Shown in pieces: positions 12,900-39,800 of a stretch of 64,000 nt of DNA. Every line of letters starts with the position of its first letter. Within the stretch, counting starts at the first letter, position 1. A program made the translations under genes and the position numbers. Source of the stretch: Flavobacteriales bacterium (GTDB lineage Bacteria > Bacteroidota > Bacteroidia > Flavobacteriales_C > GCA-002722245); the NCBI GenBank assembly GCA_023251095.1, contig JAHEZL010000004.1, positions 48,226 through 112,225 of the forward strand, read 5' to 3'. A model generated the notes under the pieces. That model was not told where the DNA came from. It ran no database searches and saw only the letters and a list, made by a program, of their open reading frames with translations.

Positions 12900-13162
12900 C
12901 GTTGATGATCACCTTTTATTAAATGGTAGGCATTCATCCCTGAAAGAAATACATTTAATATAATTACGGGCACACTTACTATAAATATTCCATATACTAC
13001 AAACAATAGCGCTCCCGCTAAGTTCCATGCACGCAAGTGTTTTATCTTTTAAAGGATAAAGAAATTCCAACGCATATCATTGCTATGTATCCTATTATTT
13101 CTGAGTATTCCATGAGAGGTATACTTCATTTGAGAAGTATGGTTACTTGGTGATTTTTTTAC

Positions 13163-13216
13163 ATGATGCCAGCTAACTAACTCTCCTCCTTGAAAAGGAG
13201 GAGAGTTAGTTAGCGA
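13163..13216. repeat. solo hairpin repeat of the CTCC-TTTGAAAAA-GGAG family
   Basis: ATGCCAGCTAACTAACTCTCCTCCTTGAAAAGGAGGAGAGTTAGTTAGC. Same family as the repeats flanking the DUF559 gene at 21.6-22.2 kb. Confidence 0.7.
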
Positions 13217-13253
13217 TTCATTCTCTGAAGTATATTTTTTAAAAATTGTAATC

Positions 13254-18600: not shown

Positions 18601-19389
18601 ATGATCATCCACGCAGAAAATCCAATTATAGAAGTGCACGATTTAACGGTGAGTTACAACAACAAACCGGTGTTGTGGAATGTTGATTTTACGCTGCCCG
18701 CCGGACAAATGATTGGCATCATCGGTCCCAACGGAGCTGGGAAATCCACCTTGCTTAAATCGCTCATGAATTTAATTCCCAATAACAGCGGCTATATTAA
18801 ATTGTTCAACGACGATTTAAATAAAGTGCGCCATAAAATTTCTTACGTTCCGCAACGCGAATCGGTGGATTGGGATTTTCCGGCAAGTGTAATGGACATT
18901 GCATTGATGGGAAGATACAAGCCGGGAAATATTTTTAAAAGATTTACTTCTGAAGACAAAGATATTGCAGCCGATTGTTTGAAGCGTGTGAAGATGCTGG
19001 ATTATGCCAAGCGACAAATTTCACAATTGTCGGGAGGGCAACAACAACGCGCTTTTTTGGCGCGTGCTTTGGCGCAGCAAGCCGATTTGTATTTAATGGA
19101 TGAACCTTTCGCAGGCGTAGATGCCTCAACAGAAAAATCCATTATTGAATTGTTTCTTTCCATGAAAGAAGAAGGAAAAACCATTTTGGTGGTACACCAC
19201 GATTTACAATCTGCAGCCGATTATTTCAATTGGATACTTTTAATTAATACCCGTTTGGTGGCCTCCGGACCAACGAGTAAAATTTTCACTCCCGAAATGT
19301 TGCGTGAAACATACGGCGGTAAACTCACCGTGTTAACGAAAGTAGGGGAGATCATAGCCGAAACTCAGTTCCCAATTCGCGAACAATAA
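18601..19389 (+). CDS. metal ABC transporter ATP-binding protein
   Basis: Walker A GPNGAGKST, signature LSGGQQQRAFLARAL, Walker B LYLMDEP. Confidence 0.92.
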   Translation: MIIHAENPIIEVHDLTVSYNNKPVLWNVDFTLPAGQMIGIIGPNGAGKSTLLKSLMNLIPNNSGYIKLFNDDLNKVRHKISYVPQRESVDWDFPASVMDIALMGRYKPGNIFKRFTSEDKDIAADCLKRVKMLDYAKRQISQLSGGQQQRAFLARALAQQADLYLMDEPFAGVDASTEKSIIELFLSMKEEGKTILVVHHDLQSAADYFNWILLINTRLVASGPTSKIFTPEMLRETYGGKLTVLTKVGEIIAETQFPIREQ

Positions 19390-20690
19390 TGATAGCTTTT
19401 GAAAATATCATTGATTTTCTTTCTCTGAAAGAAGCCAACGTTCGCTACGTGGTGCTCGGTACTATATTATTAAGTATCGCTTCTTCGGTGATTGGTTGTT
19501 TTGCTTTGTTGCGCAAACGTGCGCTGATTGTAGATTCTATTTCGCATTCTATTTTACCCGGCGTGTGTATGGGCTTTATGATTTCGGGCACCAAAGATCC
19601 TTTGTTTTTATTAGGAGGAGCAATGCTCACAGGATGGCTGTCGATTTACTTTATTGATATCATTACTCGCTATTCAAAAATAAAAGCCGATACTGCAATC
19701 GGTTTAAATCTCTCGGTATTTTTTGCTGTGGGAATTTTGTTGCTCACCATTATTCAGAATTCAGGAAATCCTAATCAATCGGGTTTATCCGATTTTCTTT
19801 TTGGAAAAGCAGCAACGATGGTGGAGTCGGATTTGTATACTTTCGGAGGAATGGCCTTGCTGGTTATTTCAGGAGTGGTGCTGTTTTACAAGCAATTTGT
19901 GTTGGTTTCCTTTGATATGAATTTTGCGAAAACAATAGGATTGAATATTAAATTCTACGAATTCATTTTATCGATATTGACTGTAATGGCTGTAGCTATT
20001 GGTATACAAACAGTAGGAGTGGTGTTGATGGCGGCGATGCTAATTACACCTGCGGCAACAGCGCGTTACTGGACAGATAATTTAAATAAAATGCTGGTCA
20101 TCGCTGCGCTCATCGGTGCCTTGTCGGGAATAGCCGGAGCCTTTGTTTCCTACTCTTATGAAAACATGCCAACCGGACCGTGGATCGTTATTGTGTTTTC
20201 GGTGATTGCCATGTTGTCGATGGTGTTTGCACCTAAAAAAGGAATTGTTTCAAAGTGGTTGCGACAAAAACGCAATTCGCACAAAATGATGGAAGACAAT
20301 ATCCTCAAAGCCTTTTATCGTTTGGGTGAAAAAGAAGGAGATTTTTATAAAAAACGAACAGTGGAAGATTTGATGAATCTGCGCAAATTCGAAAGAAATA
20401 AATTGCTCACAGGTTTGAAATGGCTGAGTGCAGAAAATACTATCGTGCACATCAATAACACTTATGTACTTTCCAAAAAAGGAAAAGCGATAGGAGAGCG
20501 GATAGTGAAAATTCATCGTTTGTGGGAGTTGTATCTCAAAATTTATTTGCGAGTTGCCGATGATCATGTGCACGATGATGCCGAAACGATTGAGCACATT
20601 ATCACACCGGAATTGGAGTTGCTATTGGAGAAACAATTGGATTATCCGACGGAGGATCCGCATCATCAAAAAATTCCTTATTCAAAATAA
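19389..20690 (+). CDS. metal ABC transporter permease (ABC-3 family) fused to a C-terminal DtxR-like domain
   Basis: About 280 aa of ABC-3 permease, then a ~150-aa tail (…KIHRLWELYLKIYL…DDAETIEHIITPELE…YPTEDPHHQKIP) that aligns with the regulator 17025..17696 (RKHRLWEVFLAEKL…IHEIAEQLEHIVSV…FPKFDPHGDPIP). Confidence 0.85.
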   Translation: MIAFENIIDFLSLKEANVRYVVLGTILLSIASSVIGCFALLRKRALIVDSISHSILPGVCMGFMISGTKDPLFLLGGAMLTGWLSIYFIDIITRYSKIKADTAIGLNLSVFFAVGILLLTIIQNSGNPNQSGLSDFLFGKAATMVESDLYTFGGMALLVISGVVLFYKQFVLVSFDMNFAKTIGLNIKFYEFILSILTVMAVAIGIQTVGVVLMAAMLITPAATARYWTDNLNKMLVIAALIGALSGIAGAFVSYSYENMPTGPWIVIVFSVIAMLSMVFAPKKGIVSKWLRQKRNSHKMMEDNILKAFYRLGEKEGDFYKKRTVEDLMNLRKFERNKLLTGLKWLSAENTIVHINNTYVLSKKGKAIGERIVKIHRLWELYLKIYLRVADDHVHDDAETIEHIITPELELLLEKQLDYPTEDPHHQKIPYSK

Positions 20691-20691
20691 T

Positions 20692-21570
20692 ATGGATTTT
20701 AAATTTGAATTAATCATAATTATCACCGCCTGTCTGGTTGCTGTTAGCAGTAGTATCATCGGTTGTTTTTTGATTCTGCGAAAAATGGCGATGGTGGGTG
20801 ATGCCATTTCACATTCGGTGTTGCCGGGTATTGTGATTGCTTTTATGCTGGGTGGTAAATTAGGTTCGTGGTATTTGTTGGTAGGTGCTGCAGTGTTTGG
20901 AATCATCACTACTTTTTTGATAGAATTTTTTAATAAAAAAGGAGGGATGCAGCACGATGCAACCATTGGTGTGGTGTTTACATCGCTCTTTGCTTTCGGA
21001 ATTATTTTGGTGACGGTGTATGCGCGCGATGTGGATATTGATCAGGATTGCGTGTTGTATGGAGAGTTGGATCATGTGGCTTTTGAGGAAGGGATAACCA
21101 TGTTCGGACAAATTATTCCTTACACGATCGTTCGTTTGTCGGTAATGTTACTGTGCATTATTACCATGGTAGTGATGGGTTACCGCGGATTATTTCTTAC
21201 CACTTTCGATCCGGCTTATGCTGCAACAATAGGTATTTCAGTGATGGCCTGGCATTATGTGCTAATGGCATCGGTGTCGCTTTCCACCGTACTTTCCTTT
21301 GGATCGGTGGGCGCAATTTTAGTGGTTGCGTTTTTAATCACTCCACCTGCCACAGCGTATTTGCTCACCGATAAATTAAAGCAAATGATTTTTCTTTCTG
21401 TTGGATTTGGAATTACAGGATCTGTTATCGGTTATTATTTCGCAACAGCGATTGATGGTGCTACTTCAGCAGCGATAGCAAGTGTGCTGGGAATGCAGTT
21501 TATTTTGGTGTTTGTAGGGAAGATGGTGGAGAAGAAGTATTTTAATAAAGTAGCGGTCACAGGGGAGTAA
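20692..21570 (+). CDS. metal ABC transporter permease (ABC-3 family), second subunit
   Basis: Paralogous to the N-terminal part of 19389..20690 (…SSIIGCFLILRKMAMVGDAISHSVLPG…). The ATG at 20692 directly follows the stop of the upstream gene; the ORF-track start is extended. Confidence 0.85.
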   Translation: MDFKFELIIIITACLVAVSSSIIGCFLILRKMAMVGDAISHSVLPGIVIAFMLGGKLGSWYLLVGAAVFGIITTFLIEFFNKKGGMQHDATIGVVFTSLFAFGIILVTVYARDVDIDQDCVLYGELDHVAFEEGITMFGQIIPYTIVRLSVMLLCIITMVVMGYRGLFLTTFDPAYAATIGISVMAWHYVLMASVSLSTVLSFGSVGAILVVAFLITPPATAYLLTDKLKQMIFLSVGFGITGSVIGYYFATAIDGATSAAIASVLGMQFILVFVGKMVEKKYFNKVAVTGE

Positions 21571-21596
21571 TTCCACATTCACGAAATCCTCCTTCC

Positions 21597-21653
21597 CTTC
21601 ACACATTCAACGCACTCCTCCTTTTTCAAAGGAGGAAGGAAGTTAGCTGGCAT
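21597..21653. repeat. hairpin repeat of the CTCC-TTTTTCAAA-GGAG family (inverted copy of the 13163 repeat)
   Basis: CTCCTCCTTTTTCAAAGGAGGAAGGAAGTTAGCTGGCAT is the reverse complement of the 13163..13216 unit ATGCCAGCTAAC...CTCCTCCTTGAAAAGGAGGAG. Confidence 0.7.
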
Positions 21654-21693
21654 TTCCTGAAAAACATATTTTGAGAATGGATGAGTATGGGAC

Positions 21694-21752
21694 TTCTCCC
21701 TTTGAAAAAGGGAGAGTGCGAGGGATTCTGTGCGAAGGCAAGAGGGATTTTT
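21694..21752. repeat. left inverted repeat of the DUF559 cassette
   Basis: CTTCTCCCTTTGAAAAAGGGAGAGTGCGAGGGATTCTGTGCGAAGGCAAGAGGGATTTT. Matches the reverse complement of 22152..22211 (first 24 nt identical, about 85% overall). Confidence 0.75.
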
Positions 21753-21787
21753 TTATCTTTATCCCGCCAAACTAAACATTTTACTCA

Positions 21788-22153
21788 GTGAAAATCCATT
21801 ATAAAAACTACTTGAATCGCTATGCGAAGAATTTGAGGAATGTCTCTACTTATTCCGAAATATTATTGTGGAATGAATTAAAACAAAAACAAATTTTGAA
21901 TATGCAATTCAATCGTCAAAGACCAATTGGTAATTATATAGCGGATTTCTATTGCGCTAAAGCAAAGCTGATTATTGAATTAGATGGAATTACTCATCAT
22001 AGCGAGGAGCAGTATAGTTTGGATGTGCTGAGGCAAGCGGAATTAGAAAATATGGGGTATAAAGTTTTAAGATTTTCGGATGAAGAAGTGATGAAGGATA
22101 GACAAAATGTGTTGAGGACAATTGAGATAGAGTTAGAAAAACGATTCGGGTAA
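21788..22153 (+). CDS. DUF559 (Vsr-like endonuclease fold) domain protein
   Basis: …AKNLRNVSTYSEILLWNELKQKQ…FNRQRPIGNYIADFYCAKAKLIIELDG…H…E… matches the DUF559 pattern. GTG start; AT-rich relative to neighbouring genes. Confidence 0.75.
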   Translation: MKIHYKNYLNRYAKNLRNVSTYSEILLWNELKQKQILNMQFNRQRPIGNYIADFYCAKAKLIIELDGITHHSEEQYSLDVLRQAELENMGYKVLRFSDEEVMKDRQNVLRTIEIELEKRFG

Positions 22154-22211
22154 AATCCCTCTTTCCGCCGCACCATAAGCCCTCGCGCTCTCCCTTTTTC
22201 AAAGGGAGAAG
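22152..22211. repeat. right inverted repeat of the DUF559 cassette
   Basis: Reverse complement reads CTTCTCCCTTTGAAAAAGGGAGAGCGCGAGGGCTTATGGTGCGGCGGAAAGAGGGATTTT. Overlaps the last codons of the DUF559 ORF. Confidence 0.75.
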
Positions 22212-22264
22212 TTAGTTAGCGACCATACTTTGAAGTAGTGGATTTAAAAATCACTCCATTTTAG

Positions 22265-23191
22265 CTACTTCATCAATCCAAATGGATACAGCGTATAATA
22301 ATTATTCATTTTTTTGAAATACTTTTCGCTCATTGCTTTTTGATTAATGTCATTGGCGGTAACAAACATGTAGCTGTATAATACATATCGTTGAATGGAA
22401 GTTTCTTCCTTTTTCAAAAGTTCATTATCGATGGTGTTCAATAATTTTGAAGCGCGTTTTTTCAAATCTTCCATGGAGCCTTCAAAGTAATTTTCTTCAC
22501 TTTGCATGGAATCATAAATTAGTTTTAGTTCAACAATTTGTTGCGTTAAACGACGAGAGGGAAGAGCTGCCATTAATTCCTGAATCATTTCAATATTTCC
22601 GTTCCATTTCGGTTGAATAACTTCTGAGTATGCGATATAAGGCCAAAGTTTGTTTGGGTCTTTTGCCACAGCTTTAGTGAAAAATTCTTTGGCTTCTTCT
22701 ACTTGTCCATAGCCCATGTGTGCTCTAATTAACCGGGTGTATGCTTCGGTGCTTAATTTTGAATGGTCAGAAATTTCTGTCAGTTGTTCAAAGGCTTTAT
22801 CCTGATAAAATTGAAAGCCGTCTATTCCTTCCGGTGATACATCCTCAGCTACTGAATGTCCTCTGGAGAGCCATGCCTGATGTATATAATGTACGCCTAA
22901 AAGTAAGGTGGGAACTTCTGTAGATGTGGAGTTGTTTTGCCATTTCATTATTTTTTTCTCATTTACAGAAAGCGCAATGTAATCCAGTGCTTGCGTGAGC
23001 ATGTCGGAATTTAAACTGTAAATTTCAGTTTCTGCATCAGCGTATGCTCCTGAATCAATTAAGGATTTGAGCTTTTTAATGGTAGGATCACCGAACGAAT
23101 AATCTACTTTTTTACTTCCTCTGAACCATTTCAGAAATAAGAATATTGCAACAGCAGCAATTAGAACTAGGACTAGAATAATTAATTTCAT
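22265..23191 (-). CDS. hypothetical membrane-anchored protein (N-terminal TM, helical/TPR-like body)
   Basis: The ATG at 23191 gives MKLIILVLVLIAAVAIFLFLKW (signal anchor); the ORF-track start at 23266 is extended. Remainder is helical with Ala/Leu/Tyr-rich repeats. Confidence 0.5.
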   Translation of the reverse strand: MKLIILVLVLIAAVAIFLFLKWFRGSKKVDYSFGDPTIKKLKSLIDSGAYADAETEIYSLNSDMLTQALDYIALSVNEKKIMKWQNNSTSTEVPTLLLGVHYIHQAWLSRGHSVAEDVSPEGIDGFQFYQDKAFEQLTEISDHSKLSTEAYTRLIRAHMGYGQVEEAKEFFTKAVAKDPNKLWPYIAYSEVIQPKWNGNIEMIQELMAALPSRRLTQQIVELKLIYDSMQSEENYFEGSMEDLKKRASKLLNTIDNELLKKEETSIQRYVLYSYMFVTANDINQKAMSEKYFKKMNNYYTLYPFGLMK

Positions 23192-23310
23192 TTTAATTAG
23201 GATTAAGCAGTCGCAAAAGTACAGTAATACTTTTGGTTTTTTATAAGCAGAAGCTGAAAGCTTCAAGAAAATATTCCGCTAAGTTGAAAACTTAGCGGAG
23301 CGTTGTGTTA

Positions 23311-24939
23311 TTATTCTTTATCCATAAACGGATAAGGGTAATCCTTTGGCGGATTTAAATTTTCTTTGATGGTGCGTGCGCTGGTCCAGCGCAATAAGTT
23401 GATGAAAGATCCCGCTTTATCGTTGGTACCCGAGCTGCGCGCACCGCCGAAAGGTTGTTGGTTCACCACAGCACCTGTTGGTTTGTCGTTGATGTAAATA
23501 TTTCCGGCGGCGTGTTCCAGTATTTTTAGTGCCTGAACGAGAGCAAATCTGTCTTCGGAAATAATGGCGCCGGTGAGTGCGTATTCACTTGTTTGATCAA
23601 TGAGTTTTAAAGTTTCTTCAAAGAGCTTGTCTTCGTAAACATAGATGGTGAGCACCGGACCGAAAATTTCTTCGCACATCGTTTTGTATTTCGGATCCTT
23701 GGTCAACACCACGGTTGGTTCTATAAAATAACCGTCCGTTTCATCATAACCCCCGCCAATTAATATTTCAACTTCGGGAGATGATTTGATGTATTCTATA
23801 TAACTAACAATTCTGTCGAAAGCTTTTTTGTCGATGACGGCATTGATGAAATTTTCAAAATTTTCAGTGGGTCCGATTTTAAAAGAAGCCACATCTTTCA
23901 GTAAATTTTCTTTCACTGCAGGCCATAAGGATTGCGGAATATAAGCCCGTGAAGCCGCCGAACATTTTTGTCCCTGGTATTCAAAAGCACCTCTTGAAAG
24001 TGCAGTGCTAACAATTTTAACATCGGCAGAAGGATGAGCGATCACAAAATCTTTTCCGCCGGTTTCACCAACGATGCGCGGATAGGTTTTGTATTTTTCA
24101 ATGTTGTTGCCAATGGTTTTCCAGAGTTGTTTAAATACTTTGGTGGAGCCTGTGAAATGCAATCCTGCAAAATCGCGGTGATTAAAAATTACTTCGCCTA
24201 CTGCGGGTCCGTCGGCAATTACCATATTGATCACACCATCGGGCAATCCAGCTTCTTTAAAAATTCCCATGAGGAAATAAGCCGAGTAAGCTTGTGCTTC
24301 ATTTGGTTTCCAAACCACTGTATTTCCCATGAGTGCCGGTGCAGCAAATAAATTTCCTGCGATGGCGGTGAAGTTAAAAGGAGTGAGGGCAAACACAAAT
24401 CCTTCCAGCGCACGGTATTCTACTTTGTTGCTTATTTCAGTGGTGGAAGAAGGTTGATCATTGTAAATTTTCTCCATGAAGTAAACGTTGAAACGGAGAA
24501 AATCGGCAAGTTCACACGCCGCATCAATTTCGGCCTGGTAGGCATTTTTCGATTGTCCGAGCATGGTGCTCGCCAAAATTTTATAGCGCCATTTTTGTGA
24601 AACAAGATCGGCAGCTTTTAAAAATATTTTTGCTCTTTCCTGCCATGGCGTCGCGCTCCATTTTGCTTTGGCAGCAAGGGCAGCATCAATGGCTTGTTGA
24701 ACATGCTTTATGTCTCCAACGCTGTAAGTTCCCAGTTTGAGATTTAAATCGTGAGGAGGAAAAATATCAATTTTATGATCGGTGAAAATTTCTTTTCCGC
24801 CAATGTATAAAGGGATGTCGATGTGTTTGCTTCTGAGGTGGAGTAATTCTTTCTGAAGGAGTTCTCGTTCTTTGGTACCGGGAGCAAAGGAATAGGTGAT
24901 TTCGTTTTCGGGGACTGGAAAATGAAAAGAAGAGGTCAT
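23311..24939 (-). CDS. pruA: L-glutamate gamma-semialdehyde (1-pyrroline-5-carboxylate) dehydrogenase, aldehyde dehydrogenase family
   Basis: ALDH catalytic region FEYQGQKCSAASR, the ETGGKD Glu-active-site motif, and a length of 542 aa typical of the RocA/PruA clade. Confidence 0.85.
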   Translation of the reverse strand: MTSSFHFPVPENEITYSFAPGTKERELLQKELLHLRSKHIDIPLYIGGKEIFTDHKIDIFPPHDLNLKLGTYSVGDIKHVQQAIDAALAAKAKWSATPWQERAKIFLKAADLVSQKWRYKILASTMLGQSKNAYQAEIDAACELADFLRFNVYFMEKIYNDQPSSTTEISNKVEYRALEGFVFALTPFNFTAIAGNLFAAPALMGNTVVWKPNEAQAYSAYFLMGIFKEAGLPDGVINMVIADGPAVGEVIFNHRDFAGLHFTGSTKVFKQLWKTIGNNIEKYKTYPRIVGETGGKDFVIAHPSADVKIVSTALSRGAFEYQGQKCSAASRAYIPQSLWPAVKENLLKDVASFKIGPTENFENFINAVIDKKAFDRIVSYIEYIKSSPEVEILIGGGYDETDGYFIEPTVVLTKDPKYKTMCEEIFGPVLTIYVYEDKLFEETLKLIDQTSEYALTGAIISEDRFALVQALKILEHAAGNIYINDKPTGAVVNQQPFGGARSSGTNDKAGSFINLLRWTSARTIKENLNPPKDYPYPFMDKE

Positions 24940-31121: not shown

Positions 31122-31159
31122 GCGACACTACTATTTTTTTGAATTTTATATTACTACAA
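31122..31159 (+). promoter_or_regulatory. conserved 5' regulatory motif of the giant CTD paralogs (copy 1)
   Basis: GCGACACTACTATTTTTTTGAATTTTATATTACTACAA immediately precedes the ATG. About 85% identical to 36791..36828 upstream of the second paralog. Confidence 0.5.
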
Positions 31160-34100
31160 ATGACAACAAATCTTAGGGGGCTAGGTCTTGTTTTATTGTT
31201 TGCTTTTTCAGCAAACTTAAAGGCGCAAAACGATTGTGCTGCATATCCTAAAACAGGAAAATTCGATACACTTACTTATATTAAATCTTCGGTTCCTACT
31301 GATCCCGGAAAGGGCGCTGGGATCTGGCTCGGACAAGGGACCATCTTAAGAAACGGATCTGAGGTGAGACCTGCCTTTATTCCTTCTAACCATCCTGAAT
31401 GGGCCATTGCCATTGCGGTAGCTTGGAATTACACCAGAAATACTATTAACCGGGTGGAGTATCCGCAAATAGGATACTGGCTGGGAACCGTGGTGCAGGA
31501 AACCGAACTGGCTTGCGTTACAGGAACCACCTGGTCAACGCCCGCTCAAACATCCAACAACATGGCAAATGCAACAACCATTATGGGGCACGACGGTTGT
31601 TTTCAAATAGAAGGTCCGGGTTCGGCTTACGGACAGCTCAATCAGAATTACCCGATGGGACGTTTTCCATCCTCCTTACATCCCACGTTAATCATGGGGC
31701 CTACCAATTTTGAAACATCAGCAATGGTGAAATCTTATTTTGATGTGTATACTACTTCTGTGTACAATGACCATGTGGGTTGGGATGTGTATGAAAGCAT
31801 TGATTGTACTACTGATCCTTATGCTTATATCAAAACATCGGCATCGGGTTATAACGGAGGTATCAATGCTTTTGCCGGAAATGCAGGGAAGTTCAACGGG
31901 AGTCAGGACGGTAATAGTTGTTGGGGAGGAATGGCGGCCACCACTGCCAACTATGCCAACGATGTAGCAAAATGGGTATCGGTGTTGGAAAATACTCCAT
32001 CGTACTGCGAGTATCCAACAGGAAGTTCTTTCGATTCTTATTACAATGGAGACATGACTTGGACGATGGTAAGTAATTACATCAACTCTATTAAAGTAAT
32101 GTATCCGGAAGTAAATTGGACTACAGTAACGGCGGCCGTGCAGGCAAAGTTTAATTCATTAGCCGTAGGCGGAAAAATCAAGTTCCAGCAAATGGGTGAT
32201 GTAATTGATGCAATCGTCATCAATCTTCCCAAAGATTATCCTCAAACAGTAGAAGGGTCTCCTGTAGGAGTGGATGTTTTTGGTTGCTCGGGAAATAAAG
32301 TGCCTTACGGTCATTTTCAAATTTTAAATGGAGCGCAAACGGTTTGCTTAGGAGAATCGGTGACTATGAATATTGTGGTAGATGCAGGAGGTGGAGCAAC
32401 GCCTACTTTTAAGTGGTATAAATCCTCGGCACCGGGAACGATATTAGCAACTACACAATCCTATACTATCACACCAACTGCCGTCGGTAGTGTAGTGTAT
32501 TCGGCAGAGGTTTGTAATTCGGCGGGATGTTATAGGTTAAACAGTAATGAATGTAATGCCTGCATGGATTCTCGTAATTTATGCGGTGTTCAGATTAATG
32601 CCAAACAATGTTCAAATTGCACTTTTACTGCAGCAGCAACTTCTACAAATACGCCTTGTAAAGGAATTCCTGGTGGAAAAATCAATTTAACGCTGACCAA
32701 CACTCCTGCAAACTATACTGTAAATTATACAGGTACCACATCAACAGGAACAGTTGTAGGTTCTTTTGCTTCAACAGGAAATTCAGTGCTAATAGATCAA
32801 TTGCGCGATGGATCATATAATGTTGAGTTGGTAAGCGCCACCGATCCTTTGTGCAAAGCTACCACAACAGTAATTGTTGGTTATACTACAAACGTTAATT
32901 ATTATTTGGACGCCAACGTTACCGGTACCGCCAACTGCGTAGCCGGTGTGAAAGCGGAGGTGAAAGAATTGCCATCGCCATGTAACTGGAAAGTGCGTGT
33001 ACATGTGCCTACTTATTTTATGTGGGAAAATCCTGTAAACTTCGGAGTGAGCACAACAACAGGATTGACCAATGTTGACCGTTATACCCGTACTGCAGCA
33101 AAACCTGAGATTGATCTATGGAACGACGCGCAGATTTACGAATCGGTTTTTTCTTTGAATACCGGTGATGTCATGACTTTCAAGTTCGGCTTAACCAACA
33201 CTCCCGGCGCTACGATGTGGAGAGATTATCAGATTACGGTTTTTGATGAAAACAACAATCAGGTATATACCAAACTTGTAGCGGCAGGATCGGCAAAACT
33301 GGATTTGCCATATACAGCAGGTACTTACGGCGTAACCTGTCCGGCTACCATACCCAATTATACTTTTTCATGGTCGCCTTCCTTAACCGCAGTGAACACC
33401 ACCACTACTACTTCTACCGGAACAGTACCTGTGGATAAAACCACCGATAAAACGTATACTGTAACGGCCATTAATTTGGCGAGTCCGCAATGTACTTTAA
33501 CTGATACAGTAATAGTTCGCAAAAACCCTGCGTGTACCACAACAGCTTGTGTGAAGCCATCGGCGGTGATTTCAGGAAGTGGATCAATTTGTCCGGGCGA
33601 CAGCATCAAATTAACGGTTACTTTAACCGGAAGTGCCAACTGGAAACTGCGCATTAAAAACGGAGCCAGCATTACCAAGGTTCAAAACATCACGGCGAGT
33701 CCTTATACTTTTTATGCAAAAACAGCGGGGACTTATTCCATAGATACCGTGTGGGATGCCAATTGCGATACTTTAGGAAAAGGAGCGGGAGCAGTGGTGA
33801 CAGTGAAAACTGCGCCAACGGCAACCATCACCGGAGCGGCAACCATTTGTCAGGGCGACAGTACCTTGATGACCGTTGCATTAACAGGAACAGCCAACTG
33901 GAAATTAAAAATCAATAAAGCAGGAGTTGTTTCAACAGTAAGCAATATCGCTTCCATTCCTTATACCTTCTGGGCAAAAACAGGAGGGACTTATACTGTA
34001 GATTCTGTTTGGGATGCCAACTGTTCGGCGAAAGGAATAGGCAGTCCGGTAGTAGTTGCGAATCCGCAGCCAACCATTGCAACAGCAGGAAGCACCACTA

Positions 34101-36691
34101 TTTGTCAGGGCGATACTGCAAAAATAACGCTCACCTTAACCGGAACTGCACCTTTTACCATTAAAGCAAAAGTGGGAGCAATCACCGGAACTTATGTGAC
34201 CAACACCACCAGTTTTATAGTTCCTTTAACCACCGCCGGAACAGATACTATAAATGTTACTGATGCCACTGGCTGCAAGGCCGTCACAAAAACAATTACA
34301 ATTGTGGTTAATCCTAAAGTAACAGTTGCTTTTGCAAAAGACACCATGAATATTTGTGCGGGAACTCCTGTGAATTTAACGCCTGTTGTAACAGGTGGTA
34401 CAGCGCCTGTTACTTACGTGTGGACGGGCTTAGGCTCGGGCGCCGGAACCAGCTACAATGCAAATGCGCAAGGCTATTATTATGTGGCCGTTACCGACAA
34501 CAAAGGTTGTATTGGTAAGGATACTGTTTATGTAAAAGTGAGTTCGAGTTTAACGGTCAACCTCGTAAACAAATCTATTTGTGTTGGTGATTCATTGATC
34601 CTTGATGCCGGTTATGATGTGGTGAATTATCATTTGCAATGGAATACTCCTGATACCACTCAGACTATAAAAGTAAAAACCGTAGGGATTTATGGCGTAG
34701 TGGTGCAAACCCGAACGGGCGGATGTACGGGAAGCGATAGTATGAATCTTTCGATGTTTGCAATGCCTGTTGTTAGCTTGGGAGTCGACGATACTATATG
34801 TATTGGCGCTAAAGCAACCTTGAATGCGGGCAACGGATTTTCTTCTTATTTATGGTCCACAACCGATGTTACGCCTACCATTTCAAAAGGAAACGGAACT
34901 TACAATGTAACGGTAACAGATGCCAACGGATGTAAAGCCAAAGACACTATTCAGGTAACAGAGATAGCAAAACCAAGTCCTGATGTTATTCAGGATATCG
35001 CCACTTGTGCCGGAACCAATCTTACTTTTAAAGAAGGATCTTACAATAATTTACACGGACCATATACTTACAAATGGCTGTATGACAACAGTACTGCCGA
35101 CAGTTTGAAATTCACCAATTTGAGCAACGCCCACAATCTGATGACTTCTTTTGGAGGCTGGGTAAAAGTAGATGTGAGTGATAAATTTGGTTGTAAAGGA
35201 AGAGACAGTGCGCGTGTTACCATTAATTCGGCATTGCCTGTTCAAATCAGCGGAGTGCCTGATACCATGATGTGTGCAGGAGGAGCGGCCATTACTTTGA
35301 GTTCGCAATATACTGCTGCGGGAGGTTATACTTTCAATTGGACGGGCACCACTCCGGCAACAACAGAAAGCATTTCGGTAACGAAAGCAGGATTGATTAC
35401 GCTTGTTGTTTCCAGCGGTGGATGTACCGGAACCGATGCCATTACTATTGTGGTGAATCCTTTGCCGGATATGAATTTAATTACTACCACCAAATCCATT
35501 TGCAGTGGTGATGCTGCTTTACTGGGCTACAACTACGGAGCCAATCACAGTTATTTGTGGGAAGATAATGCGCCGTCAACACTAAGTACAAACACCATTT
35601 ATTCTACAACAACAGGAGGTACTTATACAGTAACGGTTACCAATACTGTAACAGGTTGTAAAGCCGATACCAATATTGTGGTTACTGCGCACGCAAAACC
35701 AAATGTGGGCATAGGAAATGATATTGATACCTGTAACAATGTAACGCTGACTTTGAGCGAAACCACGGGGCAAACAGGTGTGACTTACAGCTGGACAAAA
35801 TTAAGTACGGCGCCAATAGTGCTGGGAACAACAGCGACACTGCCGGTTTCAAACAGTGATCAGTATAAATTAACAGTGACCGATGCTTTTGGTTGTTTTA
35901 AATCCGATAGTTTGAATGCACTTTTCAGAATTATGCCCGTGGTGAATTTACTAGGAGCGGATACGTCGACAATTAAAATAATATGTGAAGGAGAAATCTT
36001 GCCACTTAATGCAATAAATGCTGCTTCAGGCATGACTTATCTGTGGAATAATTCATCGGTAAATCCGGTGTTGAATGTTAATCAAAGCGGAACCTATTCG
36101 GTGACGGTGAGCAATGGAAATTGCGTTGCCAAAGACACACAAATAGTTCAGCAAATAGTTCTTCCTGATGAGGTTTTAAATGATACTATTTTTCCAATCA
36201 AATCCATTTATTGTTTTGCTGAGGAAGGTCCGGTGGTACTATCGGCCCTCACCCATGATCCTGCAAGCAGCGCTTACAATTATCTATGGAACAACGGAGC
36301 AACTACACCTCAGATTAATTTAACTGCAGGAGGATTGTACAGCGTGAAAATAGGTTTGGATAAATGTAATGTGATAGATGAAATTGCTGTGACGGATTAT
36401 TGTCCGACTACCTTTTTCGTTCCTAATTCATTCACTCCGAATGGCGACAATACCAATGATGTATTTTATGCTGTAGGATATTATGTGAACGATTATCAGT
36501 TGTTGATTTTTGATCGCTGGGGGAATCTTATTTTCAAAAGCAACGACATGGCAACGGGCTGGAACGGAATGGTGAATGGCCGACCGGTGCAGCAAGATGT
36601 ATATGTTTGGAAAGTGAATTACAGCATAAATATGGATACCGGAAAAACCAAAGCGAAAGAAAAAATCGGACACGTAACAGTGATTTATTAA
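31160..36691 (+). CDS. giant cell-surface protein with Ig-like repeats and gliding-motility-associated (T9SS type B) C-terminal domain
   Basis: Signal peptide MTTNLRGLGLVLLFAFSANLKAQ, repeated ~85-aa Ig-like modules (…ICxGDS…LTGTANWKL…YTF…VWDANC…) and the C-terminus CPTTFFVPNSFTPNGDNTNDVF…LLIFDRWGNLIFKS…GWNG…. Confidence 0.85.
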   Translation: MTTNLRGLGLVLLFAFSANLKAQNDCAAYPKTGKFDTLTYIKSSVPTDPGKGAGIWLGQGTILRNGSEVRPAFIPSNHPEWAIAIAVAWNYTRNTINRVEYPQIGYWLGTVVQETELACVTGTTWSTPAQTSNNMANATTIMGHDGCFQIEGPGSAYGQLNQNYPMGRFPSSLHPTLIMGPTNFETSAMVKSYFDVYTTSVYNDHVGWDVYESIDCTTDPYAYIKTSASGYNGGINAFAGNAGKFNGSQDGNSCWGGMAATTANYANDVAKWVSVLENTPSYCEYPTGSSFDSYYNGDMTWTMVSNYINSIKVMYPEVNWTTVTAAVQAKFNSLAVGGKIKFQQMGDVIDAIVINLPKDYPQTVEGSPVGVDVFGCSGNKVPYGHFQILNGAQTVCLGESVTMNIVVDAGGGATPTFKWYKSSAPGTILATTQSYTITPTAVGSVVYSAEVCNSAGCYRLNSNECNACMDSRNLCGVQINAKQCSNCTFTAAATSTNTPCKGIPGGKINLTLTNTPANYTVNYTGTTSTGTVVGSFASTGNSVLIDQLRDGSYNVELVSATDPLCKATTTVIVGYTTNVNYYLDANVTGTANCVAGVKAEVKELPSPCNWKVRVHVPTYFMWENPVNFGVSTTTGLTNVDRYTRTAAKPEIDLWNDAQIYESVFSLNTGDVMTFKFGLTNTPGATMWRDYQITVFDENNNQVYTKLVAAGSAKLDLPYTAGTYGVTCPATIPNYTFSWSPSLTAVNTTTTTSTGTVPVDKTTDKTYTVTAINLASPQCTLTDTVIVRKNPACTTTACVKPSAVISGSGSICPGDSIKLTVTLTGSANWKLRIKNGASITKVQNITASPYTFYAKTAGTYSIDTVWDANCDTLGKGAGAVVTVKTAPTATITGAATICQGDSTLMTVALTGTANWKLKINKAGVVSTVSNIASIPYTFWAKTGGTYTVDSVWDANCSAKGIGSPVVVANPQPTIATAGSTTICQGDTAKITLTLTGTAPFTIKAKVGAITGTYVTNTTSFIVPLTTAGTDTINVTDATGCKAVTKTITIVVNPKVTVAFAKDTMNICAGTPVNLTPVVTGGTAPVTYVWTGLGSGAGTSYNANAQGYYYVAVTDNKGCIGKDTVYVKVSSSLTVNLVNKSICVGDSLILDAGYDVVNYHLQWNTPDTTQTIKVKTVGIYGVVVQTRTGGCTGSDSMNLSMFAMPVVSLGVDDTICIGAKATLNAGNGFSSYLWSTTDVTPTISKGNGTYNVTVTDANGCKAKDTIQVTEIAKPSPDVIQDIATCAGTNLTFKEGSYNNLHGPYTYKWLYDNSTADSLKFTNLSNAHNLMTSFGGWVKVDVSDKFGCKGRDSARVTINSALPVQISGVPDTMMCAGGAAITLSSQYTAAGGYTFNWTGTTPATTESISVTKAGLITLVVSSGGCTGTDAITIVVNPLPDMNLITTTKSICSGDAALLGYNYGANHSYLWEDNAPSTLSTNTIYSTTTGGTYTVTVTNTVTGCKADTNIVVTAHAKPNVGIGNDIDTCNNVTLTLSETTGQTGVTYSWTKLSTAPIVLGTTATLPVSNSDQYKLTVTDAFGCFKSDSLNALFRIMPVVNLLGADTSTIKIICEGEILPLNAINAASGMTYLWNNSSVNPVLNVNQSGTYSVTVSNGNCVAKDTQIVQQIVLPDEVLNDTIFPIKSIYCFAEEGPVVLSALTHDPASSAYNYLWNNGATTPQINLTAGGLYSVKIGLDKCNVIDEIAVTDYCPTTFFVPNSFTPNGDNTNDVFYAVGYYVNDYQLLIFDRWGNLIFKSNDMATGWNGMVNGRPVQQDVYVWKVNYSINMDTGKTKAKEKIGHVTVIY

Positions 36692-36828: not shown

Positions 36829-39800
36829 ATGGGGGCAAAAAATTTCTTTACAAAGAAGTTAAGAGCATTATGTGTTTTCTCTTTTCTTTCTTTTTCTTCT
36901 CTTCAATTATTTTCAGCAGATATTACTGTTTCTTTTTGTCCTGTTTCTAAGATTCAGGCAGGAAAGCAGTGGAATGCAACTATTCAGATTCAAAACAACA
37001 CTGGAGTTATTCTTGATTTAAACAACCCGGCTAATTTATTTACTTTCAATTGGCCAAGCTTGGTTTCTTTGCCATACCCTTATCAAAACGGGACGCAGGC
37101 GGGTACTACCTGGAAATTTAATATAGCGGGTGTTGTTACCTGGGATTCTAAAATGCCTGTTGGTGCTACGTGGTCACAAGCTTTTACAGGTGCTTTGTTT
37201 TCCGGAGTTCTTCAGTTTCCTACATCGGGTACCTTTAAACAAGGCGCTACCACTTATACCGTGTCGGTTGCAAACTGTAATCAAACTCAAAACTATGAGT
37301 TGTACGATGCTACTTTCGATTTCAAACGGGAATGCTTTATTTATTCTCCAACAAAATTATGTTTAGGTCAGGCTGCAACTGAGATTTGGCAAGGTGAAGG
37401 AGTGTTTGATGCGATGGTGCCTACCAATAAACCAAGCTGGGCTATTGCCGATATGGTGGCGCATCGTTTGTTTACCAATTTAGTTGGACAAGACATTGTA
37501 TCTCCTAACTTTTGGATGGCGACGGCGATGAACGAATCAAGAATGACTTGTGATCCAACGATTACTCCGAATTTAACAGGCGGACATACTTACATTAATG
37601 CGAATGCCAGTTCAGGGGTTCCCGGCGCAGGAATTTCCAATACAACCGACAACTGTTTTCAGGTTTTAAATATCGGGTATACCCAAATTGAAAACAATCA
37701 ACCCGATTTATTCGCACAAACAAATGCCTACGGAACGGCCAGTTATTCCACAGTAGTGGATAACGGAAACTGGGAAACAGGTGCTTTGGCAGTTGCTTAT
37801 TATCACTATCAGGATTTGAGATATTGGGATCAGATTTACTGTTTCAATGTTCCTAAAACATGGAAAGATGCCAAAGATCCATATGCGATAGAAAAGATTT
37901 TTTATCATGCTTTTCATGATGGCCCGAATGCAGGTATTTCTTTATTAAACGACATTAAAGCCAATTATGCAGCGGCTACAAATGCTGTCAATATGAATAC
38001 TGTTATTACTACAGGCGGTACGTGGAGTGCGCCAAATGGCGGTAGTAGTATGAAGGTGGGGAACTTTACAAGTTTATTGGATGGGGGTAGCGGACTTCTT
38101 TATCCCGGACAAACAAAAACAAATTACACTACTCAGTATTTGGGTTGTTACAATGCAGCTATCAAATGGACTGATGTGGTTTACTACCTGGGAAAAATTA
38201 AAATTCTTTATCCTAAGTTGCAAACGGCTGCAATACAAACAGCAATTAAAGCTGTGTTTGATGGTATCAACGGCGGAGCGAATGTGAATTTCGAAGACCT
38301 CGGTCCGGTGATTGATGAAATCGTTATTCAAATGGGTGGGCACGATCCTTCAAAATACATTGCCACACAATTCAGCGCATCTCATACTTGTCCTACTAAT
38401 GCATTGGGTATTTCTTTAAGAACCAACGATACTATTTGTCCGGGCACAACAGGGACTTTACAAGTATGGCTGTCGGGAGATGCTAATTTTAAAGTAACCA
38501 TTAAATATCCTGATGCTTCACTGCATACTTTTTCGAATATTAATTATTCTCCTTACAATGTTCCTATTACTCAGCCGGGAGCTTATGAAGTGACTTATTT
38601 TGAAGACAATTCCCGAATTGGTGATTTGAACTGCTTGTTCAGCAAACTCACTGTTCAAAGTAAAAACGGAAATGTGGTGACCTGGGATAAAACCAATGTC
38701 ACCGGAGTAGGTGCTGCGAAATGCGCAACGGGTGATTTGATTTTAAAAAATACCGGTCCGAATGCAGTAGCCATTACTTATACAAAAGACGGGGGAGCTC
38801 CAATCACTGTGAATTTCACTGCCGGACAAACAACAAAAACCATTGCTTCTCCGGGTTTAGCCGGACAGTATATCATCAAAACAATGACGCCCAATACATG
38901 TGGAACATCTATTCTCGATACCATTACCATTTGTAATACTTCCTGTACCAAACCAACTGCTGCTATCAGCGGTGGCGCTCCAATTTGTCAGGGCGACAGT
39001 ACTCAGCTGAGTGTAGCGCTGACAGGAACTTCTCCATGGAAAATTAAAATCAATGATGGTACAATAGTGAAAACTTATAAATCGGGCATCACTACTATTC
39101 CTTATACTTTTTATGTGAAAACTGCAGGAGTGTATAAAATAGATTCAGTGTGGGATGCCACCTGCAGCAATGTTGGAACCGTTGCTACGTCAGCCGTTAC
39201 AGTAAATCCTTTGTCAACAATTGCTATTGCGGGAGATACCAGTATTTGTCCGGGAGGAACTGCTACGCTCACCTTGACTTTAACAGGAACCGCACCCTAT
39301 GCTATCAAGGTCACTACAGGTGTTACTATTGTTAATCTAGTAGCGCCGGGTAATACTTATGTCGTTCCTTTAACAACGATTGGAACTTATACTTTAGATG
39401 TTACCGATGCCAACGGATGTAAAAAATCGAAGACAGTAAAAATCATCAATGAAACTCCGCCAACGGTGACGATTGGCGATACCATTAAATTTTGTCCTGG
39501 TGGAAGCACACCTGTTTCAGTGCCTGCAGGATTTACATCTTATTTATGGTCGACTAACGGAATTACAAATTCCATCACTGTGAATGCAGCAACAACTTCT
39601 CCGGTGTGGATTGAAGTGACCGATGCCAATGGTTGTAAAGCCAGAGACAGCGCGGTAACCAAACAAGGACAATTGTCGGTGAACATCGGTCCGGCAGATA
39701 CTACTTTGTGTTTCGGATCAAGCATCACTTTAGATGGTGGAGCAGGATTTTCTACTTACGCGTGGACGGGCGCAAAAACAGGATCGGCACAAACTTTAGT

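Follow-up and report, generated by a model that had tools for sequence, protein, structure and literature searches.

The window, by which we mean the whole 64-kb stretch of DNA that was analysed, contains an intact YcjD-like DUF559 gene with a hairpin-bearing repeat on either side and a third unit of the same design upstream (Table 1).

Table 1. Features of the DUF559 locus and of the related palindrome, in window positions
Feature	Position	Strand	Details
Solo palindrome	13154..13245	.	GCTAACTAAC + CTCTCCTCC hairpin + GTTAGTTAGC; 21-bp stem
Unit U1	21582..21678	+	nhmmer, profile of 19 units, E = 8.9e-18
U1 inner motif	at 21584		AAATCCTCCTT
U1 C-type hairpin	21616-21636		TCCTCCTTTT/CAAAGGAGGA; then shell GTTAGCTGGCAT
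Unit U2, left terminal inverted repeat	21655..21752	-	nhmmer E = 1.3e-19
U2 tail	21655-21691		
U2 hairpin	21695-21715		TCTCCCTTTG/AAAAGGGAGA; then proximal third arm GAGGGATT
U2 inner-arm end	21740-21751		AAGAGGGATTTT
Candidate Bacteroidota -7 promoter box	21754..21761	+	TATCTTTA; between U2 and start codon
YcjD-like DUF559 nuclease gene (putative)	21788..22153	+	GTG start, 121 aa, intact
Unit U3, right terminal inverted repeat	22151..22250	+	nhmmer E = 4e-21
U3 inner motif	22152-22163		AAAATCCCTCTT; overlaps DUF559 stop codon
U3 hairpin	22189-22209		Shell GTTAGTTAGC at 22211-22220; tail to ~22250

The DUF559 gene and its flanking repeats

The earlier note had placed the DUF559 gene between imperfect inverted repeats, and this was confirmed. 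A global alignment of 21692-21752 with the reverse complement of 22152-22212 gave 54 identities in 62 positions (87%) with two 1-nt indels, and the outermost 25 nt of the left and right repeats were without a mismatch. A repeat search returned the same pair as two blocks, 21692-21730/22174-22212 (39 nt, 92%) and 21730-21751/22152-22173 (22 nt, 86%), and the inverted alignment of the upstream with the downstream flank scored 85, whereas 30 shuffles gave 22 at most. The internal hairpin described for each repeat was also found; it is 10 bp long, and its sequence, CTCCCTTTGAAAAAGGGAG, occurred in the 64 kb at the two repeat sites only, with 0.04 occurrences expected. Gene and repeats form a 0.5-kb gene-plus-repeat unit. 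The right repeat had been said to overlap the last codons of the gene, but the overlap is the stop codon only (22151-22153). A hairpin taken for a solo copy (21597..21653) is indeed present but not solo, since it belongs to the full third unit U1 (21582-21678, E = 9e-18). U1 is oriented like the right repeat, is joined tail to tail with U2 in a doublet and is orthologous in L001-L003 and L193; the doublet (21578-21760) is predicted to fold into a long hairpin (-69 kcal/mol, z = -7.3). The other supposed solo unit (13163..13216) has the hairpin, the GTTAGTTAGC shell and the tail but lacks the inner half. The palindrome of which it is part was related to the units in their outer half only (nhmmer E = 7e-4, model positions 37-102) and had a predicted fold of -36.8 kcal/mol (z = -8.2); it may represent a doublet that has collapsed, or else a footprint or landing site. 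As claimed, the gene is AT-richer than its surroundings, but only modestly so: its GC content is 33%, that of the window 39% and that of the adjacent TPR-like gene 35%.

The terminal repeats measure ~60 nt in the window and up to ~100 nt in relatives; those of the L004 cassette matched over 77 nt at 91% and are about 97 nt long in all. Promoters of Bacteroidetes have the -7 consensus TAnnTTTG. Downstream of U2 and ahead of the start codon is a candidate box of this kind, and relatives have TATATTTG or TAATTTTG at its position; judged by these motifs, the DUF559 gene appears to have its own promoter inside the repeat-bounded segment. This bears on whether the segment is an invertible (phase-variable) 0.5-kb DNA switch, as might be suspected from inverted repeats of 60-100 nt around a gene and from the 14-fold enrichment of "DUF559 domain-containing protein" among predicted programmed-inversion targets (PMC9881135). 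Because the candidate promoter lies inside the segment, inversion would be no on/off switch for the gene. Moreover, relative to the ABC-3 gene the segment faced the same way in the window, L001-3 and L193 (five contigs), no recombinase gene is adjacent, and the flank repeats are direct in many relatives. We regard such a switch as very improbable.

The gene product matched Pfam DUF559 (PF04480) with E = 6.5e-35 (119.8 bits; cut-off, 20.6). DUF559 and MTES_1575 were its only Pfam matches; a recognised transposase family was not among them. Sequence searches also matched PDB entry 3HRL (E = 5.7e-30) and the homing endonuclease I-Bth0305I (3R3P; hmmsearch E = 7e-6). An AlphaFold2 model (pLDDT 87, pTM 0.81) gave Foldseek TM scores of 0.71/0.90 to 3HRL and 0.67/0.82 to 3R3P, with Vsr (1cw0/1vsr; a weak match, E = 0.02) farther down the list. 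The model thus supports the Vsr-like fold that had been proposed: the predicted fold of the protein, in common with Vsr and E. coli YcjD, is Vsr-like PD-(D/E)XK, and the protein is a putative nuclease. Its acidic and histidine residues are conserved as well. In 38 sequences, E24, W28, Q44, P46, D53, E64, G67, H70, D79 and R95 were invariant, and in the predicted catalytic set three invariant residues (D53, E64 and H70) are joined by D66, conserved in at least 90%; L025 has Y for His70, and its units are nonetheless kept. The protein is under strong purifying selection, with dN/dS of 0.05-0.18 and synonymous sites saturated between chromosomal contexts. The NCBIfam model PRK09767 (YcjD) aligned over its full length (residues 11-119 to positions 7-113 of 117, E = 3.6e-19), and the score of 69 bits lay below the 218-bit equivalog cut-off; by sequence, the window protein is a member of the YcjD clade and not a YcjD equivalog. 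Unlike vsr in the vsr-dcm pair, the window gene has no adjacent cytosine methyltransferase gene. PADLOC gave a weak "homing endonuclease" match; membership in a defence system was rejected, since the PADLOC matches were weak and to generic nuclease models only. For the 121-aa product with GTG start no exact protein record was found; the recorded product of the gene has 83 aa and a later start. The gene-repeat association also accounts for unusual C termini (PTPNPSEEGN, PPGPLQRGIGEG) and extended N termini of annotated DUF559 proteins, as read-through into the repeats.

Design of the units and their association with DUF559 genes

Each unit consists of a hairpin with a pyrimidine arm and a purine arm, one or two mirror copies of the purine arm and an outer shell. 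In the window the blocks read CTCCCTTT-GAA-AAAGGGAG-AGTGC-GAGGGATT ... AAGAGGGATTTT, and a three-block test (pyrimidine arm, purine arm, mirror purine arm) found all three blocks in the window units. This third-arm (mirror-repeat) design and the link to BoxC/PIT/TMECO repeats taken up below were absent from the earlier note. The hairpin variants TCTCCC, TCCTCC and TCTCTCCGTCAG are each fully self-complementary. In C-type units the inner mirror motif co-varies with the hairpin arm (CCCTCT vs CCTCCT), but in the TCTCTCCGTCAG variant the mirror arm is not changed to match, which weakens a strict triplex requirement. The units are 75-88% identical between contexts although the synonymous sites of the gene are saturated, showing that the repeat units are under selection. 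That the repeats are a duplicated palindromic target was rejected, because the hairpin loops are reverse complements and not identical.

The inner motif and the full-unit profile matched nowhere but beside the gene, whether in the 64-kb window or in any related locus; elsewhere in the window one partial unit only was found. A loose triplex-motif scan of the window had an uninformatively high background, apart from the three cassette units and a match at 13182. A flank-repeat score above 35 was obtained for 61 of 77 distant DUF559 loci and for none of 134 control positions (Fisher P = 2e-38). Self-repeats covered 29-34% of the 200-nt flanks, upstream and downstream, of 80 DUF559 genes, compared with a background of 3-4%, and pyrimidine-arm hairpins were present in 71/76 upstream and 70/76 downstream flanks; in many relatives the flank repeats are direct and not inverted. 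These comparisons of flanking sequences show the gene-repeat association to be general for the DUF559 clade of the window. The earlier suggestion of a selfish lifestyle for at least some DUF559 members was, if anything, an understatement, as the association is family-wide. A description of the pairing of the DUF559 family with BoxC-like repeats was not found in the literature.

The earlier note had also named a pattern that would speak against its own proposal, namely that the repeats are no more than convergent REP-type terminators of a family spread through the genome beside unrelated genes. The hairpin-plus-shell part does resemble the palindrome 8 kb away and gene-less elements in a related genome, as this pattern would predict. 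It is contradicted, however, by the restriction of full units in 64 kb to the flanks of the gene, by the same bracket accompanying the gene in four contexts and by the counts above (61/77 loci against 0/134 controls). A scan for a GC-rich stem with a T-run found no intrinsic terminator within 21500-22350, and the unit hairpins are not intrinsic terminators because no T-run follows them. Chance bracketing by a generic repeat family deserves next to no credence.

Chromosomal contexts of the cassette and gene-less doublets

DUF559 proteins at least 68% identical to each other are encoded in four unrelated chromosomal contexts: at the 3' end of an ABC-3 permease gene (window, L001-3 and L193), at hypothetical/PBP1 (L004), at HisKA/IspG (L005-24) and at DUF5723/RidA (L025 and L194-198). 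Homology between cassettes of different contexts comprises the gene and both repeats and stops at the outer repeat edges; window positions 21692-22224, for example, align to 4912-5439 of L004, with no homology beyond. Within the first context, the synteny of the window with L193 ends at 22236, and the right-hand neighbour differs among the window, L003 and L193, the breakpoint being the outer edge of U3. One MAG has two cassette copies in different flanks (87% identical over 622 nt) and, in addition, a truncated 5' remnant; identity among its 38-40-nt units is 100%. In L107, the closest relative to lack the cassette, synteny holds on either side (79% at the nucleotide level), and a DEAD-box helicase gene occupies the interval. 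These alignments support the view that in the course of evolution the gene has changed chromosomal site together with its units. The small mobile cassette of the earlier note is thus upheld by the four contexts and by homology that does not reach beyond the outer repeat edges, but other hallmarks were not found. There was no target-site duplication at the L004 cassette ends or at the L106 doublet insertion, a small sample, and no clean empty site, the ABC-3 permease scan of metagenomes having returned four loci only. Near-identical copies within one genome were not found either, the paralogues being 68-87% identical (best pair, 87%).

In any given lineage the cassette keeps to a single site and has diverged about as much as its flanks (87.5% vs 82.5-85.7%); the gene had the same neighbours throughout the 21 and the 14 contigs of two lineages. 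The cassette, single-copy and vertically inherited, is closer in character to a resident nuclease of the RAYT kind than to a classic short-lived homing gene, and strong purifying selection together with a single copy is unusual for a purely selfish homing gene. These observations could be taken a step further, to a domesticated, immobile resident nuclease beside which the units, as the only mobile or dynamic parts, gather by cis action or as operators, while the contexts reflect old paralogues and differential loss. Single-copy genes at fixed positions (21 and 14 contigs; window/L003/L193), a dN/dS of about 0.1 and the confinement of E. coli ycjD to one locus are what such a nuclease would predict, as is the variation of units among close relatives while the gene is static (a unit insertion of 129 nt in L005 is absent from L017). 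It does not predict that homology across contexts takes in the gene with its two repeats and goes no farther than the repeat ends, nor the MAG with two copies in different flanks and a 5' remnant, nor the syntenic site without a cassette in L107. We consider full immobility of the gene unlikely. Carriage by phages or plasmids was rejected: viral contigs had distant relatives only, mostly partial and with flank repeats in 6/75, and 34 of 72,556 plasmids carry a relative, 27 of these 34 being large and non-mobilizable.

The MITE-like, gene-less derivatives anticipated earlier were indeed found. The 8.8-kb L106 has two gene-less doublets of the cassette-unit design, at 2510-2680 and 5323-5500. 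The former lies between the stop of an ATPase gene and the start of a permease gene, which abut in the window, L107 and L003; from this comparison, the 2510-2680 doublet is an insertion between two operon genes. A degenerate pattern for the inner arm of L106 gave no match and was probably mis-specified. Head-to-head doublets adjoin the gene in L005, L017 and L025. Altogether, units occur in both orientations and in varying number, also as gene-less doublets at unrelated sites, and their number and orientation vary among close relatives.

This distribution also has to be weighed against an ordinary repair-type nuclease whose neighbouring hairpins are regulatory or structural elements (mRNA stabilisers, terminators or autoregulatory operators) with no role in mobility. 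The positions of the units are conserved, one ending ~36-40 nt before the start codon by the -7-like box and another beginning at the stop codon, and purifying selection on the units would be expected of such elements too. Elements that regulate the gene would not, however, be expected to face either way, to vary in number and to recur as doublets without the gene at unrelated places, once inside an operon, nor would rearrangement breakpoints be expected at their edges. Furthermore, the hairpins are without a T-run, no Rfam family was found for the units at gathering or permissive thresholds, and for the equivalent E. coli repeats earlier work detected neither promoter nor terminator activity (PMC4666352). 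A purely regulatory role is improbable. Matches of Rfam miRNA models to the long hairpin were dismissed as chance.

Relation to known systems and proposed mechanism

BoxC/PIT/triplex-motif repeats, familiar since the 1990s, abound in many bacteria, where they coincide with hotspots of genome rearrangement. A mobility function for them was "never found" according to a 2015 survey (Holder et al. 2015, PMC4666352), and neither a linked enzyme nor an associated mobility gene was reported there. Like these repeats, the window units have a C-rich arm, a loop, a G-rich arm, a second loop and a mirror G-rich arm, occur singly or as inverted pairs in intergenic regions and are tied to local variability of gene content. 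Moreover, the E. coli DUF559 gene ycjD adjoins such repeats, having TMECO/BoxC units and a duplicated remnant of its 3' end downstream. The adjacent unit matches the TMECO pattern CCCTCNCCC N3-6 GGGNGAGGG N3 GGGNGAGGG and has a median of 18 copies per E. coli genome; ycjD itself was found at one locus only. Phylogroups that carry ycjD have 13-30 TMECO copies (23 in K-12) and those without it 0-13, a correlation that rests on very few independent events. O157:H7-type genomes (phylogroup E) keep 10-14 copies; they belong to a group that is reported to have eefRABCD where ycjD would be. A 4.69-Mb record named "E. coli 042" has ycjD and 22 unit matches; it was left out as an independent test, its match to the 042 strain of the published table being uncertain. 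The window units differ from TMECO in that they fail the pattern CCCTCNCCC...GGGNGAGGG, their arms being A/T-richer (CTCCCTTT), and have a second, distant mirror arm, a shell and a tail, for a length of ~100 nt compared with 37-56.

The closest parallel in organisation is RAYT-REPIN (Bertels & Rainey 2011, PMC3116915; PMC5581495). There, too, hairpin repeats in inverted orientation enclose a small nuclease/transposase gene and are also found as inverted doublets with a long-hairpin fold. The gene is as a rule present once, passed on vertically and held under purifying selection, and the repeats differ in sequence from lineage to lineage while the design is kept. However, the RAYT enzyme is an HUH/Y1 transposase and not a Vsr-like PD-(D/E)XK (DUF559) protein, and the window units have the extra mirror-repeat (third) arm. 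Beside the dispersed REPIN population stand one partial unit in the 64 kb of the window, two doublets in the 8.8 kb of L106 and the median of 18 units per E. coli genome. I-Bth0305I, an EDxHD/Vsr-like homing endonuclease (Taylor et al. 2011, PMC3239194), has a homologous catalytic domain, and its gene, like that of the window in our model, is the cargo of mobile DNA. The enzyme is, however, a multi-domain protein encoded in a phage group I intron without flanking repeats, whereas the 121-aa window protein is a bare catalytic domain, encoded in the chromosome with terminal inverted repeats; the phage relatives, too, are mostly without flank repeats (6/75). With DNA transposons and their MITEs the cassette shares terminal inverted repeats, short gene-less elements in which an AT-rich spacer replaces the gene between the same ends, and insertion polymorphism of one gene-less element, but not a known transposase family, a target-site duplication or multi-copy bursts.

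At a probability of roughly 55%, we favour a mobile system of nuclease plus repeats, RAYT-REPIN-like or homing-like, that is built on a PD-(D/E)XK nuclease. The small nuclease, probably dimeric like its homing-endonuclease relative I-Bth0305I, would recognise the pseudo-palindromic units or an extruded non-B structure and nick or cut there. Recombinational repair by the host would then copy units, and rarely the gene, into other sites that bear a unit or a hairpin, and the same breaks would cause the changes in gene content at the outer repeat edges. In each lineage the cassette behaves as a long-lived single-copy resident and not as a bursting transposon.

A broader possibility, which we put forward tentatively and hold to be somewhat short of an even chance, is that YcjD-like DUF559 proteins are the cognate enzymes of BoxC/PIT/triplex-motif repeats from Bacteroidota to E. 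coli, a second partnership of the RAYT-REPIN type. The window cassette would then represent this partnership in its smallest autonomous form, and the gene-less doublets would be non-autonomous elements derived from it. If true, this would account for the origin, the spread and the local genome instability of these repeats, and a PD-(D/E)XK nuclease would join the few enzymes by which repeat populations are maintained within genomes. If the gene-repeat association is functional, it would give a role both to the DUF559 family, with its ~22,900 clusters at 50% identity, and to the repeats. The long-standing question of the BoxC/PIT repeats has thereby become testable, directly in E. coli K-12 with its ycjD and TMECO copies.

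Inverted hairpin units around the DUF559 gene

The earlier note had observed a DUF559 gene bracketed by inverted repeats, which was confirmed, and had read it as a possible mobile or homing cassette, which is supported in part. The ORF product matches Pfam DUF559 with an E value of 6.5e-35; relatives have ATG at the codon where the window ORF has its GTG start, and the right repeat begins within the stop codon of the ORF. A repeat search of the window returned the inverted pair as 39 nt at 92% plus 22 nt at 86% identity, and global alignment of left and right repeat gave 54/62 identical positions (87%), two single-base indels and no differences in the outer 25 nt. The inverted-alignment score of upstream against downstream flank was 85 (shuffles, ≤22), and the 19-nt hairpin core occurs only in these two repeats in the 64 kb, with 0.04 occurrences expected; a chance origin of the arrangement carries little weight. 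The GC content is 33% in the ORF and 39% in the window, but since the adjoining TPR-like gene has 35%, composition says little.

Coordinates of the cassette, its units and neighboring features
Feature	Sequence	Position	Strand	Remark
DUF559 ORF	window	21788..22153	+	GTG start, 121 aa
Left repeat	window	21692-21752		reverse complement of right repeat
Right repeat	window	22152-22212		reverse complement of left repeat
Full unit	window	21582-21678	+	profile match
Full unit, left repeat	window	21655-21752	-	profile match
Full unit, right repeat	window	22151-22250	+	profile match
Partial unit	window	13154-13245		hairpin, shell and tail
First ABC-3 permease	window	19389-20690		433 aa
TPR-like gene	window	22236-23316		interval with the gene, right of cassette
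Very large ORF	window	31139-36691		1,850 aa
Very large ORF	window	36829-41514		1,561 aa
Gene-less doublet 1	L106	2492-2695
Gene-less doublet 2	L106	5323-5500
Palindromic element	L105	2592-2717
Small Cys-rich ORF	L003	4430-4760		permease-cassette gap
Right interval	L003	5390-5583		no gene
DEAD-box helicase interval	L107	4814-6552		at cassette position
Gene right of cassette	L193	2891-3729		interval with the gene; 240 aa, unknown
DUF559 copy	L025	3001-3363		Tyr-Tyr at His69-His70

An alignment of 19 units from six loci gave a consensus of ~100 nt and a profile. Read in the right-repeat orientation, the unit consists of an inner motif, (G)AAAATCCCTCTT, ~25 nt with CGCACTCTC at the end, a 10-bp hairpin (TCTCCCTTTT/AAAAGGGAGA), the shell AGTTAGTTAGC and the tail CCCAT..CTGAAAAA. 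The profile matched three full units in the window. The hairpin unit at 21597 is therefore real, but not solo as had been claimed; it belongs to a third complete unit, which forms with the left repeat a tail-to-tail doublet that folds into a single extended hairpin (-69 kcal/mol; z = -7.3). The sole other profile match in the window is partial and kin to the outer unit half only; its palindrome has a perfect 21-bp stem, GCTAACTAAC-CTCTCCTCC..GGAGGAGAG-GTTAGTTAGC. Recombination of one doublet hairpin with the other would leave such a palindrome, which may represent a landing site, the footprint of an excision or a doublet that has collapsed.

On its own strand the left repeat reads CTCCCTTT-GAA-AAAGGGAG-AGTGC-GAGGGATT ... 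AAGAGGGATTTT: a pyrimidine arm comes first, then a purine arm, and lastly two mirror copies of the latter, one near and one distant. The family has three variants of the hairpin (TCTCCC..., TCCTCC... and TCTCTCCGTCAG|CTGACGGAGAGA), all of them fully self-complementary. Units of the TCCTCC type have AAATCCTCCTT, not AAATCCCTCTT, as inner motif; thus, the mirror arm covaries with the arm of the hairpin. In the third variant, however, the inner mirror motif is not correspondingly altered, and the case for a strict structural requirement is weaker for it. No T-run follows any cassette hairpin, and the units matched no Rfam family; we give a purely regulatory reading of the repeats small weight.

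Gene and units in four chromosomal contexts

Close protein relatives lie in four unrelated genomic contexts: A, 3' of the ABC-3 permease (window, L001-L003 and L193; 87-100% protein identity to the window); B, with a hypothetical gene and PBP1 (L004; 73%); C, with a HisKA kinase and IspG (L005-L024; 70%); and D, with a DUF5723 protein and RidA (L025 and L194-L198; 68-70%). In all four, the inner motif and full units occur only adjoining the DUF559 gene, arranged (minus, left-repeat orientation) as [-]gene[+] in L004, [+][-]gene[+] in the window, [+][-]gene[+][-] in L003 and [-]gene[-]spacer[+] in L017 and L025. Nucleotide homology between contexts comprises exactly the repeats and the gene, as in the alignment of window 21692-22224 with L004 4912-5439 (71.5% identity, no alignment outside). 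Although synonymous sites have reached saturation between contexts (pS about 0.7), unit identity remains at 75-88%; the units are thus themselves constrained. One MAG has two cassette copies with different flanks, 87% identical over 622 nt, whose hairpin units of 38-40 nt are 100% identical; a truncated remnant near them consists of one unit and the first 12 nt of the gene. At L034 1-85 / 999-1098 and L031 1525-1838, in a high-GC MAG, there are such a remnant, a further unit on its own and, over ~190 nt, a tandem duplication of the region around the downstream unit. Gene and units have moved jointly between sites over evolutionary time. The mobile-cassette reading is borne out in this respect, whereas no target-site duplication was seen at the L004 cassette ends or the L106 doublet insertion.

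Within context A, the cassette (87.5% identity) diverges about as fast as its flanks (82.5-85.7%), which indicates vertical inheritance. In L107, a more distant, syntenic locus with 79% identity in either flank, the cassette is missing and its position is occupied by a DEAD-box helicase gene; this is a presence/absence difference, yet not a clean empty site. The right neighbor of the cassette varies, being a TPR-like gene in the window, an aldehyde dehydrogenase in L003 and a different gene in L193, and synteny between the window and L193 stops where the right unit has its outer edge (22236). The right side of context D is likewise variable. The Cys-rich ORF of L003 has no counterpart in the window. 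The first ABC-3 permease carries a C-terminal DtxR-type 'Fe_dep_repr_C' domain and is thus a transporter subunit fused to a metal-repressor domain, a fusion conserved in L001, L003 and L107. The two very large ORFs of the window are neighbors; a 1,554-aa gene with Ig-like and CHU_C matches at the end of the L003 locus resembles them in size.

Units also occur without the gene. Metagenome contig Ga0208960_1000037 (L106), a relative's ABC-3 locus without the cassette, has two head-to-head doublets of ~170-200 nt of the cassette-unit design, with an AT-rich spacer of 30-45 nt at the expected place of the gene. Their shell, ACTAATCAAC, is identical to that of L017, and their hairpin is CTCCTCC/GGAGGAG. 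Their inner arm, GAGGTGGTTAT, differs from that of cassette units and is among the mirrors permitted for the purine arm. Doublet 1 separates the ATPase stop codon from the permease start codon; since these abut in the window (19386-19391), L107 and L003, the doublet is an insertion. L105 has another palindromic element (GTAGGGGCGTATTGAATACGCCC ... mirror) at the same intergenic point; hairpin elements from more than one family seem to be drawn to this junction. Head-to-head doublets also lie 3' of the gene in L005, L017 and L025, with their own matching tails in L025. Of the rival readings, we give most weight to one in which mobility is confined to the units and the gene stays in place as a resident, but consider it less likely than a nuclease-repeat mobile system.

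Association of DUF559 genes with repeats across the family and in E. coli

A scan of species-representative genomes yielded 80 loci in Bacteroidota, Balneolaceae, Ignavibacteria, Neomarinimicrobiota and others, with proteins 46-68% identical. Self-repeats covered 29-34% of the 200 nt on each side of the gene, 3-4% of sequence >600 nt away and 0.2% of the gene itself. Flank repeats scoring >35 were found at 61/77 loci (47 inverted, 32 direct) but, at a distance of 1.8 kb, at 0/134 control positions (P = 2e-38, Fisher test). Pyrimidine-arm hairpins accompany the gene in 71/76 flanks upstream and 70/76 downstream, roughly 16 times the control level. The association is thus family-wide. Unit sequence varies by lineage while the design recurs (e.g., CCCCTC..GAGGGG, then AGGGGTGTGTT), and many annotated homologues end in sequences like PTPNPSEEGN or PPGPLQRGIGEG, the translated hairpin. 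Phage relatives are distant and mostly partial, with flank repeats in 6/75 (five of the six near-full-length and YcjD-like); plasmid copies are scarce (34/72,556).

In E. coli K-12, the end of the DUF559 gene ycjD (positions 300-520 of L110, which is NC_000913.3 1350900-1352400) is a degenerate BoxC-like unit. Downstream, the 3' end of ycjD is duplicated (39 nt), followed by CCCTCGCCC-CTCTG-GGGAGAGGG-TTA-GGGTGAGGG, which fits the published TMECO/BoxC pattern (PMC4666352). The units of the cassette have a constrained, structured, BoxC-like design. In a set of 5,426 complete E. coli genomes, 3,378 carry ycjD, and the median number of sites for the adjoining TMECO unit is 18 per genome. TMECO counts have been published for 56 strains; with the strains assigned by us to phylogroups, they are 0-2 in B2 (17 strains, one without a listed count), 6-7 in F, 10-11 in E, 13 in D and 13-30 in A/B1/C; a sample spread over BLAST rankings had the same bimodality. 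A 2026 study (PMC12817139) places ycjD in phylogroups A, B1 and C and reports that the locus has the eefRABCD operon in other phylogroups. That TMECO counts track ycjD-carrying phylogroups agrees with a nuclease-repeat system, on very few independent events; phylogroup E (O157:H7-type), which is reported there to have eefRABCD in place of ycjD, still has 10-14 copies. According to a 2015 paper (PMC4666352), TMECO sites are hotspots of local variability, and none was ever seen with a transposase or integrase nearby. The 14-fold enrichment of 'DUF559 domain-containing protein' among predicted inversion targets (PMC9881135) is expected if inverted repeats overlap annotated ORFs, and we assign little probability to the cassette being an inverton. 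In literature mentioning DUF559 or ycjD, mainly titles and abstract openings, the gene-repeat association did not appear to be described.

The nuclease and a model for unit spread

A profile of 38 homologues matched the Neisseria DUF559 protein (PDB 3HRL, E = 6e-30) and the catalytic domain of the homing endonuclease I-Bth0305I (E = 7e-6). The AlphaFold2 model (pLDDT 87) superimposed on them with TM values of 0.71/0.90 and 0.67/0.82, respectively; Vsr itself ranks further down. D53, E64 and H70 are invariant and D66 almost so, and dN/dS values of 0.05-0.18 among six cassettes indicate that the protein is maintained by selection. The L025 copy, with units still present, has Tyr-Tyr in place of His69 and the otherwise invariant His70 and, judged by sequence, may be an inactive nuclease. 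E. coli YcjD (NCBIfam) aligns end to end with the window protein, with a score under the equivalog cut-off, and PADLOC gave only a weak 'homing endonuclease' match. The DUF559 family comprises 22,883 clusters (50% identity, E ≤ 1e-3). Homologues P0121, P0122, P0124 and P0127 include proteins with two or three tandem domains (e.g., 377 aa with three matched stretches) and a 1,214-aa protein with the domain at its end.

By analogy with dimeric I-Bth0305I on its pseudo-palindrome and RAYTs on REPs, the DUF559 nuclease would act on its own units; break repair would then spread the units and occasionally the gene, and would also be a source of the junction variability. We give such a nuclease-repeat mobile system a probability of roughly 0.55. 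The element is best filed with nuclease genes flanked by cognate palindromic repeats. Its significance lies in the general association of DUF559 genes with BoxC-type repeats more than in the single locus, and direct testing is possible in E. coli.
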